From an uncultured Alphaproteobacteria bacterium (lineage in GTDB: Bacteria; Pseudomonadota; Alphaproteobacteria; Sphingomonadales; Sphingomonadaceae): a DNA stretch of 64,000 nt. Both the position numbers and the translations under genes were made by a program. How positions within the stretch are numbered: the stretch's first letter is position 1; each line of letters opens with the position of its first letter. Below the pieces are notes generated by a model that was given only the letters and a program-made list of their open reading frames with translations, did no database searches and was not told the DNA's origin. This document shows positions 13,967 through 40,953 of this stretch, piece by piece. Location: contig CAWHQE010000001.1 of assembly GCA_963831485.1 (NCBI GenBank), forward strand, positions 85,288-149,287, given 5' to 3'.

Positions 13967-16271
13967 CGGCGCTTTTCGACCACCTGCGCGAGCGCGGCGT
14001 AAAGCTTGCCCATATCCGACGACATCAATGTGACCGCGATCATCCCGCCGTCGCGTTCGGCGAGGACACGGCGCAGCATGGCTTCGAAATCATGGACGTA
14101 GCGGTTCACCGAGGACTGGAACTCAGGCTCGCTTTCGTAATGTGATTTGATCGACCGCGTTTCGCTGGCGTCCATCAGACGTACGGCGCGCCTGGTGAAG
14201 ACGCCGCGGTTGCCCTTCAGATAGGCGCCCCACGCTTTGTCGTCGATTTCGTCGGACAGGATCTTGCCAACGTCGATCGACGCGGAATGCATCGAGTTCG
14301 ATCAGCAGCGAAACACGGCGGGCGAAAGCCTCGCTGTCCTTCTCGCGCTGCTCGTCGCGGGTCGCTTCGATATGCTGTTCGAGCGCCGACGCGCTCTGGC
14401 CGAGCGACAGCACCTGCTGAGTCAGACGGTCCGATGCGGCACGCGCCGATTCGACCGCGCGGGCCGCGACCGTTTCCACCTCCCGCAGTCGCTCTTCGAT
14501 CTCCTCACGGATCACGCGCTCCAAAGCTGAGCGAGTCTCGTCGGACAACTTCACGACGCTCGATGGGATGACTGCCTCAATCGCTTCGCGGGCGCGCTCG
14601 GCGGCGTGGGCGGCCGCGTCCTTCACATGGACCAGCGCGGTGACGAGCGCCGGCGCCGTTTCGGCGCTGAGACTGGCCGCTTCGCGTTCGACCTCCGAGA
14701 GCATCGACGAAAGTTCGGTGAGCTTGCTCTGCGCGTTGCCGACGCCCTCATCGACGGTGGCGAGGAGGGCGGTGAAGCGATTCTGTTGCTCGCCGATGGT
14801 CTCTTCTGTCTCCGACAGGCGCTGACCCGCCTCGACGGTCGCTTCGCGAATGCGCTCGATTTCGGGGCGCACCGAAGTCGCCGCTTCGGACAACCGGTCA
14901 GCGCCGCCCTGGGCCTCGCCGATGGCCGTCCCGAGGTTTTCGCGGATTTCGTTGGTCAGCCGGTCGATGCTCTCGCTGAGGGTCGCGGTCCGTTCCACAA
15001 TCGAGCCAATCGCCGATTCCTGCGAGATCGCCTGAGAAGCGAGCGTGTCGAGTTCGCTGCGCGCGCGGCTGAGCAATTCGATGAACTTGTTCGCACGCTG
15101 GTCGCCATTTGAAGCGAGCTCCGTGAACCTCTGGTCGATCGCTGCCAGGCCGCGATCGATTTCCGCGATCATCAGGTGCGAAGCGCGGTCCTGCTCAGCG
15201 ACTCGTGCCGACAGGTTTTCGAGCGAACTGCTCGCGTGAGCGACATTGGCGGCCAGCGATTCCGCGGCGTCCATTCCTGCTCGGCCAAGACCGGCAGACG
15301 CCTGTTCGACGAGCGCAGCGACCGCCGCGGACTGAACGTCGATTCCGCCGCGGATCTCCTCGAGCGTCGCTGAGGTCCGCTCAAGCAGCGTCTCAAGAGT
15401 GGAGGACATCCCCGCATGCGCTTCACCGAGCCGAGCCGTGGCGGTGGTTCCGGCAATATCGATTTCAGCAAGTCGAGTGGCGAGCCGGTCCGTCGCCTCG
15501 GCAATCAGCTGGTCCGCTTCGCGGGTCCGTTCGGTGAGGTGACCGACATAATTGCCGAACACCTCGGCCTTCTCGACGGATTCGCTACCGAGCGCGCGGA
15601 TTTGCTCAGCCAGCGCGCGCGTTGTCTCTTCGGCGCTCGGCAAATCCTCGAGTAGGACGGCGACATCATTTCGTGCCGATTTCGGCCGCGCGGTCAAGCG
15701 CTTCGCCGTGCCGCTTCAGCCTCTCGCTGCTGTTGTCGAACTGCTGGGTGATCCCGCCAAGCTTTCCGGTCGCATCATCGCCGAGCTGCATCAGATTCTG
15801 CGCCATCATCGTCAGCTCGGAGCGACTCTCGCTGATCCGCTGAGACAGGACTTCGAGCAAAGCCTCGAGCGACTGAGCTTCGCCACGCATAGCGATGACG
15901 GAGCGAGTGAAGCGCTCTGCCTCCTTACGGCGGGTGCGACCGAAGATCAGCCAGAGAAGTGCGAAAAGCGCGAGCGGCCCCGCCGCGATCGCCAGCCATT
16001 GGGCGACGATCGGCGAGGTAAGCGGTTGCCCGGAGAGGGTGCGTCCGGCAGACCAGGCCGAATAACCAAGCCACACCGCCGACAGAGCGATCAACGCGAT
16101 CGCAAGAACCTGCCGCCCACCTGCTCCGAGATCGGCGGACAATTCCTCAGTAGGCTGGAGCCACTGCTCTTCTTCCATCGAACCGTCGGGAAGGACGTCC
16201 GCGCTCGTCAATTCGAGGGGCTCGAGGGAATCGGTCAACGCATGCTCAGCACGCTTGGGGATCGGTGTCAT
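13963..16271 (-). CDS. About 768-aa membrane-anchored coiled-coil protein (TipN/GPR-like), split by two +1 indels near 15681 and 14296
   Basis: Three consecutive ORFs join into one frame after removing one base at each site (DRAAE-SARNDV; LLIE-SMHSASIDV). Two N-terminal TM helices, long helical repeats, C-terminal VNRYVHDFEAML...SSDMGKLY domain. Confidence 0.75.
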
Positions 16272-16354: not shown

Positions 16355-17536
16355 ATGACGGTCGGCGCGCTGATCGGGGCCTATCAGGAAGATGACAGTG
16401 GCGGTCTTCGGGCACTGCTTCCGCTGGCTGGAAGGACCCTGCTCGAATATCAGGTCCGCTGCGCCGCCGCTGCAGGAACCGCGCCGGTCGTGATCGTCGT
16501 CGAGCGAGTACCTCAGGCGCTCCAGGATGCGTTCGAACGGCTTCGCCAGGATGGCGTTGCGGTCTTTGCGGCGAGCGACGTCAGCGAAGCCCTGAGCCGC
16601 TTCGAAGCAGGCTCGATGATCCTGCTTGTAGGTGACGGCATTGCGCCGCCGGCGGACTTAGTGGCCGCATTGGCGAACGAACCGGAACCAGCCGTCGCGA
16701 CCGTACCAGACGATGCCGCGCACCAATCGTTCGAACGCATCGACGCCGAATCGAGGTGGGCCGGGGTGGCGCTGGTCGATTCGCATTTGCTCGGCTCAAC
16801 GGCCGCCATGCTTGGAGATTGGGACCTTCAATCCACCCTTTTGCGGCGGACACTTCAGGAAGGAGCGCTTCGTCTCCCGGCGAACGACGTCGGCGGCGAA
16901 CCCCTCATCGCCGAGACAGGCGAAGACCTGTACGACTTCCAGCGCAAGCTCGTCGTCAGCTCGCGCGGCGCCCGTCCGGACTGGGTCAGCCGCTATCTTC
17001 TTCCACCAATCGAAGAGCTTGCGACCGAGCGGCTAATGGAGAGCGGAGTCAGGCCGCCGTGGCTGATGTGGGCAGCGCTCGGCCTTACGCTTGGCGGAGC
17101 GCTCTGCTTCACCCGCGGATGGCTCGGCGCCGGGCTCGGCTTGCTTATCGCATCAATGCCGCTCGATCTCATTGCCAACCGGCTTGCTGGCCTGCGCCTG
17201 AAACCTCTGCCGGTCCGAATGCTCAGCCGGCTGGCCCTGTGGCCCGCCGCGGGAATCGCCCTCCTCGCACTCGGCTGGTGGGAAATGGGCCATGTCAGCG
17301 GCTGGGGTGCACTCGTCGGCGCGATCGGGGCGGGCGCGTTCGCCGAAGCGGCGCGAATCGAGCGATCGTCGATGCAGGACAGCGAGCCTTGGTTGATCTC
17401 ACGCCGAAGCGCGATCGTTCTTGCCGTTCCCTTTGCTCTCGCGGGCGCCTGGACAAGCTATCTTGTGGTGCTTTCGGTTTACGCGCTGGTTTCCTTCTTC
17501 ATTGTCCAGCATGTGCGCCATCAGTCATCAAGTTGA
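16355..17536 (+). CDS. Nucleotidyltransferase-like N-terminal domain plus multi-TM C-terminal domain, function unknown
   Basis: RALLPLAGRTLLEYQV resembles sugar-nucleotidyltransferase N-termini; several hydrophobic segments in the C-terminal half. Confidence 0.6.
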   Translation: MTVGALIGAYQEDDSGGLRALLPLAGRTLLEYQVRCAAAAGTAPVVIVVERVPQALQDAFERLRQDGVAVFAASDVSEALSRFEAGSMILLVGDGIAPPADLVAALANEPEPAVATVPDDAAHQSFERIDAESRWAGVALVDSHLLGSTAAMLGDWDLQSTLLRRTLQEGALRLPANDVGGEPLIAETGEDLYDFQRKLVVSSRGARPDWVSRYLLPPIEELATERLMESGVRPPWLMWAALGLTLGGALCFTRGWLGAGLGLLIASMPLDLIANRLAGLRLKPLPVRMLSRLALWPAAGIALLALGWWEMGHVSGWGALVGAIGAGAFAEAARIERSSMQDSEPWLISRRSAIVLAVPFALAGAWTSYLVVLSVYALVSFFIVQHVRHQSSS

Positions 17537-17573: not shown

Positions 17574-18614
17574 ATGATGCCTGAAGAGTGGCCGATTATC
17601 GCTTCGGCAGAGCCGAATGCGCCCGCGCGCGTCGCGGGCCGTGGGCGCCTGTCCACGGTCCGGGCCGATTTTTTCCTCAATCCCGCCGAGCGCCTGACGG
17701 AACAGGAACGGGCGCTGATGACTGCCATGCTGCACTGCCTTGTGGGGGATATCAGCGGCGAGATCCGTGCTGCGCTGCCGGCCGGTTGGGCGGGCGCTAA
17801 TGACGATGAGGCAGCAACCGTCAATTCCTTGACCAGGGCGGGCCTGCTCGATGACGCTGAGCTGATGGCGCTACTCCTGCGCCGCGCCGACGAAGAGCGG
17901 ATTGGGAGCGCTGCCCGAGCACGGAGTGGTCGCCGCGAGGCGCGCGCTGTCCAGGGACTCGTCAGCTACCACGACTCGACGGTGTCTGCCGCGGCAATGG
18001 CGCTGATCCTTGCGCGCGGCAGGCGCCGCGACCGCTTCGGTCAATGCCTGATCGCTTTCGACGATCTCTCGACCGTGTCATCGCAGAGGCTAGTCCACGC
18101 CGTCGCTGCAGCTTCGCGCCGCGATGTCGCCTCCGGATATGGCGCCGCTGCGGCCGATGCCGAGCTTTCAGCCGCGGCTTCACGGCTCCTCGACAAGCAT
18201 GATCAGGGGCGTGGCGTCGAAGCGCTTACTGCTGCGCTTGTTGCGGTTCTCGACGAAGCCGGCGGACTATCTGACGAACTACTTCTCGCCTGCGCTCAGG
18301 AGGGCGAAGTTGGATTCCTCGCTCAGGTGCTCGCCCGAAGGGCCGGCATCAGGGGCACCGTTGCGATGGACGAGCTTCTCGCCGGCGAGCCGGGTCGCTT
18401 GATGGCGCTGCTTCGCCTCGCCGGCTTTTCGCGCGAGCTCTGCGCTGGCCTGCTGGCAAGCCTCGGCGACCTTTTGGGAATCGATGATCCGGGATCTGCG
18501 ATCGGGCATTTCGATGCCATGACCGCCGAGGAGATTGGCGCAACGGCCAGCTGGCTCTCGGCGACCGCTTACTACCGCGCTGCGCTCGAAGCGTTGGGAA
18601 GCCGCAATGGCTAG
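17574..18614 (+). CDS. DUF2336-like all-helical protein
   Basis: 346-aa Ala/Leu-rich helical ORF with DFFLNPAERLTEQERAL and LLLRRADEER segments, which I recall from the sphingomonad DUF2336 family. Confidence 0.55.
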   Translation: MMPEEWPIIASAEPNAPARVAGRGRLSTVRADFFLNPAERLTEQERALMTAMLHCLVGDISGEIRAALPAGWAGANDDEAATVNSLTRAGLLDDAELMALLLRRADEERIGSAARARSGRREARAVQGLVSYHDSTVSAAAMALILARGRRRDRFGQCLIAFDDLSTVSSQRLVHAVAAASRRDVASGYGAAAADAELSAAASRLLDKHDQGRGVEALTAALVAVLDEAGGLSDELLLACAQEGEVGFLAQVLARRAGIRGTVAMDELLAGEPGRLMALLRLAGFSRELCAGLLASLGDLLGIDDPGSAIGHFDAMTAEEIGATASWLSATAYYRAALEALGSRNG

Positions 18615-19935
18615 TGCTCCATCCGAACCCCGCGCGGTCGCCGGACGGCTCGACAGCTTCGGGCGGCTCATCGCGGCCGACCCCGAGCTTGAATCGCTCC
18701 AGCGGGAAGCTGGTTCGGAAGTCGGCCAGATGCTTGCTTTGCCGCAGGTCGCCGCAGTGGCCCAGCTGGCTCGTAAGCTTGGCACTTCTGTCGGGCGCCC
18801 AGCTGTCGCTGCCTCGGCTGACAACGACATCGAAATTTGGGTCAATGCAACGCCTGAAGGCGACGAGATCGTCTTGTCGCTTGAGGGCTGGACGGTACGT
18901 CCTGCGGCCGGTCCCCGTCTTGCAACGATCCTCGGCGGCGGCAGTGAAGCCGCCAGCGCAGCCGCGCAGAACGAATGGGCGACCGACGAGGAGCTGCGGA
19001 TCATCTCCATCTCATCGGAATTTGCTGAGGTGCTCGGAATCGATGTCGCAGAGGCTGCCGGTGCACCGCTCACGCGCATCGTCCGCCTCGAAGAGGATGC
19101 AAGCGGCGAAATGCCGCTGATCAACGCGCTGGCGGGCAGGCGCAACTTTTCGGGCCAACGCGGACGCAGCCGATCGAACGAAGCCAGCATCGTGCTCAGC
19201 GGCGAAGTCGTGACGGCGGCCGATGGCTCCTTTGCCGGCTTCCGCGGGACAGCCGCAAGCGAGACGGACGCTAGCGCGCAGGCAATCACCCGTTCGCCGG
19301 GCTTCGACCAGGCGTTGGACGAATTGCTGCGCTCCCCGATCGATCGGATCATCGAGAGCGCTGAAAAGATCGTCGCCCGCTCGGACGGGCCGCTGCGCGG
19401 CGATTATGCAAATTACGGCAATGACATCGCGTCTGCTGCCCGGCATCTGCTCTCCGTACTCCGCGCGATGAGCGAAGACCCCACCCAGGTTCACGGCCTC
19501 GTCGATCTTGCGGCGCTCGCGTCCGAAGCCGTCATCATGCTCGAATCCTCGGCTGAAGATCGCGGCGTGCATATCCAGATCGATCGTTCCGAACCGCTTC
19601 GTGCTCGCGGACAGGAACGCGCGGTCATCCAGATCCTCGTGAACCTGATCGTGAACGCGATCCGCTATTCGCCCGAAGGCGCCACGGTCCGGATCAGCTT
19701 CGACAGGGTCGCGGGGGCAGCGTCGGTTATCGTTGGCGACGAAGGTCCGGGTATCGCCGCTGGTGACGAGCAGCGCATTTTCGAGCGTTTCGAGCGAGCC
19801 CAGGCCAAGGAAGCCGGCACCGGCCTCGGCCTCGCGATCTCGCGGCGGCTCGCCCGTTCGATGGGTGGCGATGTGACGCTCGACAGCGCGCCGGGCGAAG
19901 GCGCGCGCTTCACGCTCACTCTTCCGGCTGCCTAG
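18607..19935 (+). CDS. Sensor histidine kinase-like protein lacking the phospho-accepting His
   Basis: Intact N, G1, F and G2 boxes ([30 protein letters not shown]); H box reads DELLRSPI. Confidence 0.88.
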
Positions 19936-21221
19936 CCTCTCTTGTCGACCGGCACGTAGTCGCGCTGAGTAGCGCCGACATAGAGCTGGCGCGGGCGGCC
20001 TATCTTCTGATCCGGATCGGCGATCATCTCGTTCCACTGCGCGACCCACCCGACGGTGCGCGCAACAGCGAAGAGCGCGGTGAACATGTCTGTCGGGAAG
20101 CCGATCGCGTTCAGGATGACGCCCGAATAGAAATCGACATTCGGATAAAGCTTCTTATCGATGAAATAGTCGTCGTTGAGCGCGATGTGCTCGAGCTCTT
20201 TGGCCACATCGAGCACCGGGTCGGAAATGTTAAGCTCCTTGAGGACCTCGTCCGCGGTCGCCTTCATCACCTTCGCCCGCGGGTCGAAATTCTTGTAGAC
20301 GCGGTGTCCGAACCCCATCAGCCGGAACGGATCGTTCTTGTCCTTCGCCCGAGCGATATATTCGGGGATGCGTTTGGTCGTGCCGATCTCTCGCAGCATG
20401 TTGAGTGCCGCCTCGTTCGCTCCACCATGCGCGGGACCCCACAGGCAGGCGATGCCCGCTGCAATGCACGCGAATGGGTTCGCGCCCGACGATCCGGCCA
20501 GGCGGACCGTCGACGTCGACGCGTTCTGCTCATGGTCGGCATGGAGGATGAAGATCCGCCGCATCGCATTCTCGATGATGGGGTTCACCACATATGGCTC
20601 CGCCGGCACGCCGAAGGTCATCCTCAGGAAGTTGCCGGTGTAGCTGAGGTCGTTCTGCGGATAGAGGAACGGTTGCCCGATCGAATATTTGAAGGCCATC
20701 GCCGCGATCGTCGGCATCTTCGCAATCAGCCGGTGTGAAGCGATCATCCGCTGCTCGGGATCGGTGATGTCGGTGCTGTCGTGGTAGAATGACGAGAGCG
20801 CGCCGACGACTCCGCACATGACCGCCATCGGGTGCGCGTCACGCCGGAACCCGCGATAGAAGGTCGCGAGCTGCTCGTGCACCATCGTGTGGCGGCTGAT
20901 CGTGTAGACCCACTCGTCCAGCTCCTTGCCGGTCGGAAGCTCGCCGTGGACCAGTAGATAGGCGACCTCCATGAAGCTCGAATTCTCAGCGAGCTGGTCG
21001 ATGGGATAGCCGCGATGGAGCAGGATTCCCTTTTCGCCGTCGATGTAAGTGATCTTGCTTTCGCAGCTCGCCGTCGAGGTGAAGCCCGGATCGTAGGTGA
21101 ACATTCCGGTCTGGCCGTAGAGCTTGCGGATATCCACGACCTCGGGACCAACCGTCCCGTCAAGGAGCGGGTAGTCGAAATCGCCTCCCGGCGTTTTCAT
21201 CGAGACGGCTTTGTCGGTCAT
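19932..21221 (-). CDS. gltA: Citrate synthase (type II)
   Basis: [31 protein letters not shown] and YPNVDFYSG motifs. Confidence 0.98.
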
Positions 21222-38250: not shown

Positions 38251-38706
38251 CAGAACTTCAGGCCCAAGCGGTCGAGGGCGATCGCGATTTTCGACGGCGC
38301 AGAAGCGGTCGTTGCGTCAATTGAGATCAAAGGAAGCGCTACTCCGAGGATCGTCCGCTCGCGGCTGTCGTCCGGCATGCGCTCGATGTCGCTCGTCAGC
38401 TCGACGACCATTGCGACGGGCACGTCGCTGATGTGGTCGATTTCGACGATGCCAATGCCGCGCACTTCGAGCTTGCCGGCGATGTTGGGCGCAGCTGCGG
38501 CGATCAGGCGGTCTCCCTCGCGCTTGACGACAGTCTGGTCGTCGCTGACGAGGCGTGAACCCGCGATCGAGCAAACGCAGCGCGAGGTCCGACTTGCCCG
38601 ATCCGGAAGCGCCGGTGATGAGGACAGCGCGACGGCCGAGGGCGACGGTGCTCGCATGGATGGATTCTGCCGACAGCCGGGGCGCCGCTCCCCCGATCTG
38701 GCTCAT
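38250..38706 (-). CDS. hprK: HPr kinase/phosphorylase, with a +1 indel near 38552
   Basis: IHASTV and GASGSGKSDLALRL in one frame; LVSDD and LEVRGIGI in the next. Confidence 0.88.
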
Positions 38707-40274
38707 GAGCGATCTGCCGCCGGGAGGCGGATCGTGAAGCGGGCGCCCGATGGCGCATCATCGCGATCGTGCACGTCAATCTCCCCGTCGTGGCCTTTGA
38801 CGATAGCCTGGGCGATAGCAAGGCCGAGCCCCGAGTGACGGCCGAAACTCTCGCCCTCCGGTCTCACCGAATGGAAGCGGTTGAAGATCGCTTCGCGGGC
38901 TTCGGGCGGGACGCCCGGGCCCTCATCGTCGACGCGGATTCGGATCTCGTCGCCAACATGCGCCGCAGCGATCTCGACGAGGCCCCCAGGCGGCGAAAAG
39001 CTGACGGCATTGTCGATGATCGCGTTGATCGCCCGAGCGAGCCGGTCCGGCTTGCCCATGACCACCGCAGTATCCTTGCGCGGACGGGCGAAGGCGAGGC
39101 GCGCATCGCCAGTCTCCCGGCGACTCTCCCAGCCCGTGACGATCTGTTCGATGAGGGGCCCGAGGTCGACCCGCTCGAAGGCGGCGCGATGAAGCTCGGC
39201 ATCGGTCCGCGCTGCTTCCCCGATATCGTTGATGAGGCGGTCCAGCCGAGCGACATCCTCGCGCGCGATGGTCATCAGCCGCTGCCGGAGCTCAGGATCG
39301 TCGACACGGTCGAGGCCGTCGACTGCCGAGCGTAGCGACGCGAGCGGGTTCTTCAGTTCGTGGCTGACGTCCGCAGCGAAGGCATCGATATTGTCGATTC
39401 GCTGGCGCAGCGATTGGCTCATGTCGGAGACCGCGCGGGCGAGCAGACCGATCTCGTCATTCCGCTTTGGGAGTCGAGGCACGTTGACTTCGCGCGCGCG
39501 GCCCAGGCGCACCCGATGCGCGGCAACGGCGAGGCGCCGCAGCGGCCTCGCGATCGTACGCGCCAGGAACATCGAAAGCAGCACGGAGATGGCGATGAGA
39601 ACACCCATCGCGCCGACGATGAGCGCCCGCTCGTGACGAACCGCCTTGGTGAAGGTGCGGTCATTGTCGGTCGCGAGGAGGACTCCGCCTTCGAACGGCA
39701 CCGCCGATGAAATGACTGGTGACAGATCCGGCGCATTGCGGACTTCAGTATTGGGTCGTCCCAGCTGGCGAGCCTTGACCGCCTCGGGCCACGCCTCGAG
39801 CCGATCGATCTTCGGTTCGACATAATCGTCCAGCGATTTCGCGCCGACGATAAAGTTAAAGCCCTTGTCGAACGCCAACGCGACATCCTGCGTCCATTTT
39901 TGGGTGGTCGGGTCGCGCAGCTCCCAAGTTGGGCCGGTCAGCTTCCAGCTGTCGATCAGCAGGGAACCGTTGTGGTCGTACAGGCGGAAGCGATCGTCCG
40001 TAACCTTCGAAGCGGTCGCCAGCAGTGCCGGCCATTGCGAGGCCGGCACGCTTGTCATCGCCGCGACCGCGGTCGCCGTTTCGAGCCGGGTCTGCTGTGT
40101 ACGTTCCTTGCTAAGCCGATGACGAAACGCGTCCAGGTAGAGCGTGCTCAGGATGACCAGGAGCGCGGTAATGACGTTAAGCGCAAGAATTCGGTGCGTG
40201 AGCGTCCAGCGACCCTCCCAGCGGAGCTGGGGATCGGGCAGCTCACTGCTCGTCGAATCGGTAACCGACGCCAT
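38703..40274 (-). CDS. chvG: Sensor histidine kinase ChvG/ExoS
   Basis: Two TM helices, [17 protein letters not shown] and HSGLGLAI; upstream of hprK; ATG 40274 preferred as start. Confidence 0.92.
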
Positions 40275-40953
40275 AGAGGGTCTCGATCGCGTCGAATTCC
40301 AAATCGACGCTGCGGAACTTGCGGCGGATGCGCTTGATGTGGCTGTCGATGGTTCGGTCGTCGACATAGACGTCGTCGCTGTAGGCGACGTCGAGAAGCT
40401 GGTTGCGGGTCTTCACGACGCCCGGCCGCTGGGCGAGCGCCTCCAGAATCAGGAATTCGGTGACGGTGAGACTGACATCCTTTCCGCTCCACCTGACCTT
40501 GTGTCGGGCCGGGTCCATCATCAGGCGTCCGCGCTCCAGCGGGGGCGGATCGTCCTCGGCCATCGCCTCTTCGGCACCGCCGCGCTCGAGTTCCTGCCGG
40601 CGAAGGATCGCGCGGATGCGAGCAATCAGCAGACGCTGCGAGAAGGGCTTCGAGATATAATCGTCGGCACCCATTGCGAGGCCTAGGGCCTCGTCGAGCT
40701 CGTCATCCTTCGACGTAAGAAAGATCACCGGCATCGGGCTGAACTCACGCACCCGGCGCAGCAACTCCATCCCGTCGAGATTGGGCATCTTGATGTCGAA
40801 TACGCCCAGATCCGGTGGATTGTCGTTAATCGCCTTCAGCGCAGCTACGGAATCCGAATAGACGCGCGTCACGAAACCCTCTTGCTGGAGGGCGATCGAG
40901 ACCGAAGTCAGGATATTGCGGTCATCATCGACCAGCGCGATCACATGGTTCAT
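40243..40953 (-). CDS. chvI: Response regulator ChvI
   Basis: [16 protein letters not shown] and [12 protein letters not shown]; divergent from pckA. Confidence 0.94.

Follow-up and report, generated by a model that had tools for sequence, protein, structure and literature searches.

A conserved, probable pseudo-histidine kinase family of the Sphingomonadaceae encoded beside a DUF2336 protein

Pseudo-histidine kinases are rare, and DivL is, to our knowledge, the only well-understood case in the alphaproteobacterial cell-cycle circuit. DivL binds phosphorylated DivK and controls CckA. In Caulobacter and other alphaproteobacteria, its PAS domains precede a core composed of the dimerization and histidine phosphotransfer (DHp) and the catalytic and ATP-binding (CA) domains, where the phospho-His is replaced, and the protein acts by binding rather than by phosphotransfer. 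The subject of this study is a gene for a protein of the same layout, with the phospho-His likewise replaced, located in a 64,000-nucleotide stretch of DNA (hereafter the window) from an uncultured member of the Sphingomonadaceae (GenBank assembly GCA_963831485.1, contig CAWHQE010000001.1). An action by binding is expected for this protein as well and, like DivL, it co-occurs in the same genomes with DivK and CckA. Among the solved structures listed as matches to its DHp and CA domains (residues 230-441), DivL (PDB 4q20) obtained the best score. However, DivL is membrane-anchored, has about 770-800 amino acids and more PAS domains, and keeps the motif 'SYELRTPL' (H to Y only), whereas the protein described here is cytoplasmic and 442 amino acids long, its His position is variable, and the Glu at H+1 and the Thr at H+4 have also been lost. 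The two families are not sister groups in phylogenetic trees. A DivL-like solution was reached independently in a different kinase lineage, and an ancient pairing of this lineage with DUF2336 proteins is an additional finding.

The PleC, DivJ, and PdhS kinases share with the new family the DHp signature 'FGP(L/I)...Y..YA.DI..(S/A)G.HLL..(I/V)(N/D)D(I/L)' and the PAS-DHp-CA layout. Unlike these kinases, the protein lacks the phospho-His, the catalytic Glu, and a conserved Thr/Asn for phosphatase activity, and because these catalytic DHp residues are missing, a classical phosphorylation or dephosphorylation of DivK is unlikely. Precedents for histidine kinase folds that regulate a two-component pathway without autophosphorylation include CckN of Caulobacter, a kinase-inactive histidine kinase that serves as a phosphatase of DivK and PleD, and RetS of Pseudomonas, a histidine-kinase-like protein that acts by binding GacS. 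While CckN needs its His47 and RetS keeps its His, neither the His nor the phosphatase residues are present here, and a CckN-like phosphatase role is therefore unlikely. The nearest kinases in the trees are DUF2336-linked PAS kinases of Sneathiella, Oceanibacterium, Iodidimonas, Govanella, Emcibacteraceae, and others, which are collinear over the second PAS, DHp, and CA domains and have the same gene order. In contrast to the sphingomonad family, they keep the H box as well as a His in the partner protein, and they lack the N-terminal PAS-like domain and the NTP-transferase and gltA neighbours. No published description of the sphingomonad family or of its His loss was found in the literature on DUF2336, SpbR, and pseudo-histidine kinases.

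The only DUF2336 protein studied so far is SpbR (CC2323) of Caulobacter, which is polar and degraded by ClpXP via RcdA, with a degradation tied to the cell cycle. Too much of it prevents pole development and the translocation of the centromere (bioRxiv 10.1101/2020.06.12.148478). SpbR was lost together with dimorphism regulators in the Caulobacterales (PMC12700997). It belongs to the same Pfam family as the product of the gene upstream of the kinase, and is the closest relative known of the partner, not of the kinase. A kinase partner of SpbR was not found in the searchable literature.

Domain layout and the degenerate H box

The kinase gene and the parts of its product are located as follows, in window positions.

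18607..19935, + strand: pseudo-histidine-kinase gene, ATG to TAG, 442 amino acids, PAS-like/PAS/DHp/CA (open reading frame (ORF) and translation, Pfam, AlphaFold2 (AF2), Foldseek)
18634..18903, + strand: N-terminal PAS-like domain, residues 10-99, family-specific (AF2 with a predicted local distance difference test score (pLDDT) of about 90; many invariant residues)
18973..19260, + strand: second PAS domain, residues 123-218 (AF2; weak Pfam matches)
19303..19473, + strand: DHp helical hairpin, residues 233-289, with the degenerate H box (AF2 helices 233-257 and 265-289)
19321..19323, + strand: GAA codon of Glu239 at the phospho-His position, with Leu240 at the catalytic H+1 (translation and alignment to solved kinases)
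19444..19446, + strand: CAT codon of His280 in helix alpha-2, within 'RHLL', the sole family-invariant His (116/116 orthologues)
19495..19929, + strand: CA (ATP-binding) domain with intact N, G1, F, and G2 boxes (Pfam, PDB sequence matches, invariant catalytic-site residues)

The protein carries neither a signal peptide nor a membrane segment and was classified as cytoplasmic. Pfam identified HATPase_c at residues 336-441 (E=7e-27) and weak matches of PAS, PAS_9, and PAS_4 at residues 124-199, while HisKA was not matched even at lax thresholds. The AF2 model, computed from an input of 42 orthologues (mean pLDDT 79.7), places a DHp hairpin before a CA domain spanning residues 297-441, as in HisKA-type kinases. 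Foldseek matched this model to PAS-DHp-CA kinases including WalK, YF1, and VicK and to the cores of HK853, ZraS, DivL, and CpxA. In the orthologue alignment, G19, L21, A24, P46, R64, and W95 of the N-terminal PAS-like domain were invariant.

The preliminary description of the gene had proposed a PleC/DivJ-type histidine kinase with Glu in place of the phospho-His. The replacement (GAA, 19321) was confirmed by translation and by alignment to solved kinases: when the DHp of the family was aligned to 'KISHEIRTPM' of RetS and 'IS(H/A)ELRTPL' of HK853, Glu239 coincided with the phospho-His and the residue after it with the catalytic Glu, the H box reading 'D-E-L-L-R-S-P'. It is not an indel or sequencing artefact, as had also been argued, since a change from CAY to GAA needs two substitutions and the His is missing in all close orthologues too. 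No autophosphorylation is possible at the canonical site. The likeness to the PleC/DivJ/PdhS DHp pattern was borne out as well: 'GPLR.DY..Y..DIA.A.RHLL' agrees with 'FGP(L/I)..Y.EYA.DI..SG.HLL', and the consensus across the family is 'GPLR.DYA.YA.DIA.AGRHLL'.

Residue conservation was assessed among 116 full-length orthologues. The phospho-His column contained Glu in 46, Lys in 14, Arg in 14, Ala in nine, Gln in nine, Thr in eight, and Asp in six sequences, with two each of Asn, Ser, Gly, and Val, and one each of His and Leu; one further orthologue has a Pro. The H+1 residue, which is the catalytic acid in real kinases, was Ala, Val, or Leu in every sequence, and the H+4 residue, the phosphatase Thr/Asn, was variable (58 Ser, 18 Ala, nine Gly, eight Thr, six Gln, six Leu, and others). 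The surrounding DHp retained an invariant set of P244, R247/I248, A252, Y267, Y270, D273, I274, R279, and H280. The ATP-binding boxes, described as intact from the start, held up equally well, with all box residues invariant or nearly so. They comprise N346 and N350 of the N box, D378, G380, and G382 of G1, F392 and F395 of the F box, and G404, G406, and G408 of G2, among which N346, N350, D378, G380, G382, F392, G406, and G408 were invariant.

The single His-bearing orthologue (locus L014 in genome G074) reads 'LDHALRMPL'. Its His is probably a chance reversion and not a restored kinase, as the H+1 residue remains Ala.

It had also been suggested that Glu239 could mimic phospho-His in a DivL-like pseudokinase binding DivK or CckA, which would lock the protein in a phosphorylated-like state. 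Glu is indeed the commonest residue at this position, not only among the 116 orthologues but also in the close set of the query and its 120 nearest relatives (97/121). Nonetheless, orthologues that are otherwise intact have Lys, Arg, Ala, Gln, Thr, Gly, Val, Leu, or Pro instead. The position is thus almost free to change within a protein that is otherwise constrained, no charge is required at residue 239, and the phosphomimic is left unsupported; this explanation is considered very unlikely. Glu239 itself is incidental, and the family is an old, selected pseudo-histidine kinase.

Spread, ancestry, and the DUF2336 partner

Homologues of the kinase were abundant. The 120 nearest share at least 75% identity and are labelled Sphingomicrobium or Sphingomonas, and the nearest cultured relative is Sphingomonas segetis (84% identity). 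A match to the kinase was found in 124 of 151 high-quality Sphingomonadaceae genomes, corresponding to 89 of 105 genera, and the synteny of its locus is kept over about 90 genera. The pairwise ratio of non-synonymous to synonymous substitution rates (dN/dS) between the kinase and five orthologues ranged from 0.10 to 0.21, with the DHp as the lowest segment (0.03-0.09 in the three closest comparisons). The kinase is therefore, by its dN/dS, under strong purifying selection. It represents a second, independent pseudo-histidine kinase beside DivL that is kept across the whole family, from Sphingomonas, Sphingobium, and Novosphingobium to Zymomonas and Erythrobacter-type bacteria, and this family includes biotechnologically and ecologically important genera.

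A different view would be that the gene is what is left of the PleC/DivJ system, decaying and without function. In the Sphingomonadales, DivJ-PleC-DivK was found by Brilli et al. (2010) to show "degeneration or a complete loss", with best matches to DivK or PleC in some Sphingomonadales genomes (PMC2877005), and the gene is absent from 27 of the 151 genomes. On the other hand, the reading frame was intact in all orthologues examined with dN/dS values of 0.1-0.2, dozens of residues are invariant in every domain, and the conserved synteny extends over the genera mentioned above. A mere remnant is thus scarcely credible. It is plausible that the sphingomonad kinase family is the identity of those PleC-like best matches.

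A profile of the family was searched over 200 alphaproteobacterial genomes. Outside the Sphingomonadaceae, it matched kinases of about 540-570 amino acids (E=1e-50 to 1e-73), which align from the second PAS domain to the C-terminus (profile positions from about 100 to 443); the N-terminal PAS-like domain is therefore not common to them. These relatives came from Sneathiella, Oceanibacterium, Iodidimonas, Govanella, Emcibacteraceae, Rhodothalassiaceae, and an unclassified Sphingomonadales metagenome-assembled genome. All of them have HisKA and PAS Pfam domains and carry MSHELRTPLNAIIGF...FGP..Y.EY..DI..(S/A)G.HLL, with the H box 'MSHELRTPL'. One was labelled "cell cycle sensor histidine kinase PleC" by the Joint Genome Institute (JGI), while NCBIfam yielded only generic HisKA matches below cut-off (TorS, BarA, HrmK, DivJ).

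Two trees of the DHp-CA region were constructed as quick trees, with the Shimodaira-Hasegawa-like approximate likelihood ratio test (SH-aLRT) as the only support and without a securely labelled PleC. The sphingomonad family was monophyletic on a long stem (SH-aLRT 100 and 94) and grouped with most of the His-bearing relatives (96 and 95), while it was separated from three full-length matches to the DivJ model, the DivL of the same genome, and other kinases. Three DUF2336-linked kinases were placed elsewhere in the tree. The sphingomonad family descends from DUF2336-linked kinases that bear the His, and its H box disappeared at around the origin of the Sphingomonadaceae.

The proposed PleC/DivJ-type assignment, for which a phylogeny had been suggested as a check, was upheld in part. 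The DHp lies within a broad PleC/DivJ/PdhS-like radiation, as indicated by the one JGI label and by the isolated DHp, whose sole NCBIfam match was the Caulobacter DivJ model (E=4e-4; the full kinase scored 68.7 bits against a cut-off of 1000). In the trees, however, the family fell beside the DUF2336-linked kinases and outside both the DivJ-like clade and DivL.

The upstream partner is described by two features.

17574..18614, + strand: DUF2336 (SpbR-family) gene (Pfam DUF2336 E=8e-12; weak NCBIfam SpbR match)
17895..17897, + strand: codon of Glu108 of the DUF2336 protein, at the position of a His invariant in the partners of His-bearing kinases (alignment)

The upstream protein scored 25 bits with the NCBIfam SpbR model, where the cut-off is 400. 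Its stop overlaps the ATG of the kinase by 8 nt (ATGGCTAG, 18607-18614), and the kinase gene is translationally coupled to it. This coupling is the key context of the kinase and was missing from the preliminary description. A DUF2336 gene was found directly upstream of the sphingomonad kinase in 32 of 50 loci by tblastn, and Pfam recovered the domain at nine of ten divergent sphingomonad loci where tblastn had failed. Similarly, a co-oriented DUF2336 gene directly precedes the His-bearing kinase in nine of ten extended loci from other families, as well as in four of four loci from other families of the same GTDB order, where SHELRTPL or SHELKTPL is intact. As DUF2336 lies upstream of the His-bearing relatives too, the DUF2336-kinase pair is old.

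An apparent fusion of the two genes at one locus (L187, a frame of 805 amino acids) was an artefact of a masked run of N between them. Additionally, a second, more divergent DUF2336 gene was observed near the His-bearing kinase at four loci (L177:7233-8348, L178:7436-8542, L179:12152-13318, and L153:68-1252); it lies immediately downstream of the kinase in three of them, and in L179 it sits on the opposite strand at a distance of a few kb.

The partners of His-bearing kinases contain an invariant His in 'R..EH(R/L)', present in all 24 sequences compared (about 16 genomes). Among 95 copies from sphingomonads, the same column holds Glu (38), His (29), Gln (16), Tyr (4), Asp (3), and others. The DUF2336 His was thus relaxed in parallel with the loss of the kinase H box. 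Several further residues that are invariant in the canonical DUF2336 lineage are also relaxed in sphingomonads, and the His, being one of a set, is therefore no proof of phosphoryl chemistry. The AF2 model of the DUF2336 protein (pLDDT 87.6, predicted TM-score (pTM) 0.83) is all-alpha with 18 helices, and no significant PDB match was obtained either by fold (best Foldseek E=0.7) or by sequence, so that DUF2336 may be a structurally undescribed fold. These comparisons gave no confirmation of an HPt fold.

A broader scenario can be outlined, although it is speculative and, taken as a whole, improbable. DUF2336 and the downstream PAS kinase would form an ancient, undescribed signalling pair, where the invariant DUF2336 His would take part in phosphoryl chemistry as an acceptor or a phosphotransfer partner, and the Sphingomonadaceae would have converted this pair, His by His, into a phosphorylation-independent binding module feeding DivK/DivL/CckA-CtrA. 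Together, the kinase partner and the parallel-decaying His provide a testable hypothesis for the entire DUF2336 family, beyond the sphingomonads.

DivK, DivL, and the proposed mode of action

All HATPase_c proteins of the window's genome were inventoried. The true DivL of this genome has 792 amino acids with a Tyr at the His position ('NMSYELRTPL') and is encoded outside the window (G000:C13:164447-166825, locus L044); DivL is kept in 135 of the 151 Sphingomonadaceae genomes. The suggestion of a DivL-like pseudokinase was retained as far as a pseudokinase role is concerned, which is the best reading of the protein. The protein is not the DivL of the cell, given the separate Tyr-bearing one. 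The other HATPase_c proteins were CckA, ChvG, PhoR, PrsK, a hybrid kinase, and several HisKA_2/HWE-like proteins. This inventory, of an assembly that is about 91% complete, yielded no His-bearing kinase with a DHp signature of the PleC/DivJ type. The single-domain receivers included CpdR (190.7 bits, model cut-off 180) and a DivK orthologue outside the window (G000:C18:28347-28751, locus L139), which matched Caulobacter DivK (PDB 1m5t) with E=3.7e-36 compared with 2e-16 for the next match, and which retains the acidic pocket and the phospho-Asp motif. The divK gene stands alone, with no pleD, response regulator, or kinase beside it.

The distribution of the pseudokinase and DivK among the 151 genomes was as follows.

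Pseudokinase present, DivK present: 121 genomes
Pseudokinase absent, DivK absent: 18 genomes
Pseudokinase present, DivK absent: 3 genomes
Pseudokinase absent, DivK present: 9 genomes

Uncorrected for phylogeny, the co-occurrence gave a Fisher's exact p of 5.6e-14 with an odds ratio of 81, and the double losses fall in about 12 genera. Among the 18 genomes without both genes, 15 also have no DivL and two more have only a truncated DivL. The signal is hence one of membership in a DivL/DivK module and not of a specific tie to DivK. A DivK-like gene was also found in 16 of 16 checked genomes with canonical DUF2336-kinase pairs, which is weak evidence for want of a negative control.

On balance, the protein is probably a dimeric, nucleotide-binding pseudokinase that signals by its DHp face and PAS domains, most probably with DUF2336 and plausibly on DivK, DivL, or CckA. 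Its ancestor was a cytoplasmic PAS histidine kinase of the PleC/DivJ-like radiation, of a kind encoded directly downstream of DUF2336 in several alphaproteobacterial orders. When the H box decayed at the base of the Sphingomonadaceae, the protein lost its phospho-His along with the acid/base Glu at H+1 and the Thr/Asn at H+4. Strong purifying selection has preserved the PAS domains, the faces of the DHp hairpin, and the ATP pocket. The protein would still dimerise through the DHp and still bind ATP or ADP, yet carry no phosphoryl group on the canonical site. Since that site cannot be phosphorylated, signalling would proceed by protein-protein binding, with the conformation set by the nucleotide state and the PAS domains. 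The co-translated DUF2336 protein would be the most likely partner, and the orphan response regulator DivK or the DivL-CckA complex a further likely one, with a predicted accessory role in the regulation of motility, polarity, and the cell cycle by the CtrA pathway. The family is a concrete candidate for what replaced the DivK kinases in the Sphingomonadales, whose DivJ-PleC-DivK system has been reported as "degenerate".

Several points weigh against this reading. The interactions with these partners are predictions, and the co-occurrence with DivK is confounded by loss of the whole pathway, DivL included, and by shared ancestry. Nine genomes retain DivK with no detectable copy of the kinase gene, and the kinase is therefore dispensable for DivK function there. 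No response regulator gene was linked to the DUF2336-kinase pair in any lineage examined, and no CtrA box (TTAA-N7-TTAA) was found anywhere in the window. Because the assembly is incomplete, it may lack a PleC/DivJ kinase with a His that the organism does encode. Finally, the strict conservation of the ATP site would equally fit a still-active enzyme, of which two kinds were considered.

First, the protein could be an active kinase with a non-canonical acceptor, where the CA domain would phosphorylate His280 and the phosphate would be passed to DivK or another regulator. His280 is as invariant among the orthologues as the ATP-binding residues, it lies near the height of residues 239-243 and about one helical turn from the old H box in the AF2 helix geometry, and the genome encodes a phosphorylatable DivK with no obvious DivK kinase. 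However, nearly all relatives whose acceptor is the H-box His also keep this His (in 'G.HLL'); it was thus conserved before the loss, and no new role has to be invoked for it. In addition, the protein has no H+1 acid to catalyse phosphoryl transfer, and no precedent was found for alpha-2 phosphorylation in HisKA kinases. A kinase acting through His280 is thus held to be unlikely.

Second, the protein could be another ATP-dependent enzyme, namely a GHKL-type Ser/Thr/Tyr kinase or an ATPase acting on DUF2336 or another protein. Such a use of the fold is known from anti-sigma kinases and from the BCKDK/PDK kinases of mitochondria. The strict retention of the CA catalytic motifs despite the loss of the His, together with the obligate, translationally coupled DUF2336 neighbour, would suit such an activity. 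Nevertheless, a conserved Ser/Thr/Tyr target was not identified, constraint is highest in the DHp rather than in the CA domain, pseudokinases often retain nucleotide binding for conformational control, and catalysis is not specifically required by any of the data. An enzyme of this kind also appears rather doubtful, and the nucleotide-binding pseudokinase is preferred.

Neighbouring genes and further observations

The genes flanking the DUF2336-kinase pair in the window are listed below.

14123-15697 and 15666-16271, - strand: two overlapping ORFs in divergent orientation to the operon, with synteny kept at about 45 of 50 sphingomonad loci
16355..17536, + strand: NTP_transf_3 and membrane-domain gene, first gene of a putative three-gene operon (Pfam)
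19932..21221, - strand: gltA (citrate synthase), convergent with the kinase gene, the two stops overlapping by 4 nt; kept in synteny at 45 of 50 loci

A common order was kept across the Sphingomonadaceae: rnj, the two minus-strand ORFs, the NTP_transf_3/membrane gene, DUF2336, the pseudokinase, the convergent gltA, and gltX. The NTP_transf_3 protein has 393 amino acids; a MobA-like NTP transferase domain occupies its N-terminal part, and the C-terminal half is hydrophobic. Its gene directly precedes the DUF2336-pseudokinase pair at all 50 long sphingomonad loci but is absent at the loci of the His-bearing relatives. The gltA gene is context only and lies outside the proposed module. A sigma-70 scan of the operon region returned no site, and no convincing site was recognized on reading the 84-nt divergent intergenic region.

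Elsewhere in the window, a ChvG-type envelope-stress histidine kinase is encoded at 38703-40412 on the minus strand (NCBIfam ChvG E=1e-102, below cut-off), and it is adjoined by a response regulator ORF (G000:C1:125530-126330).

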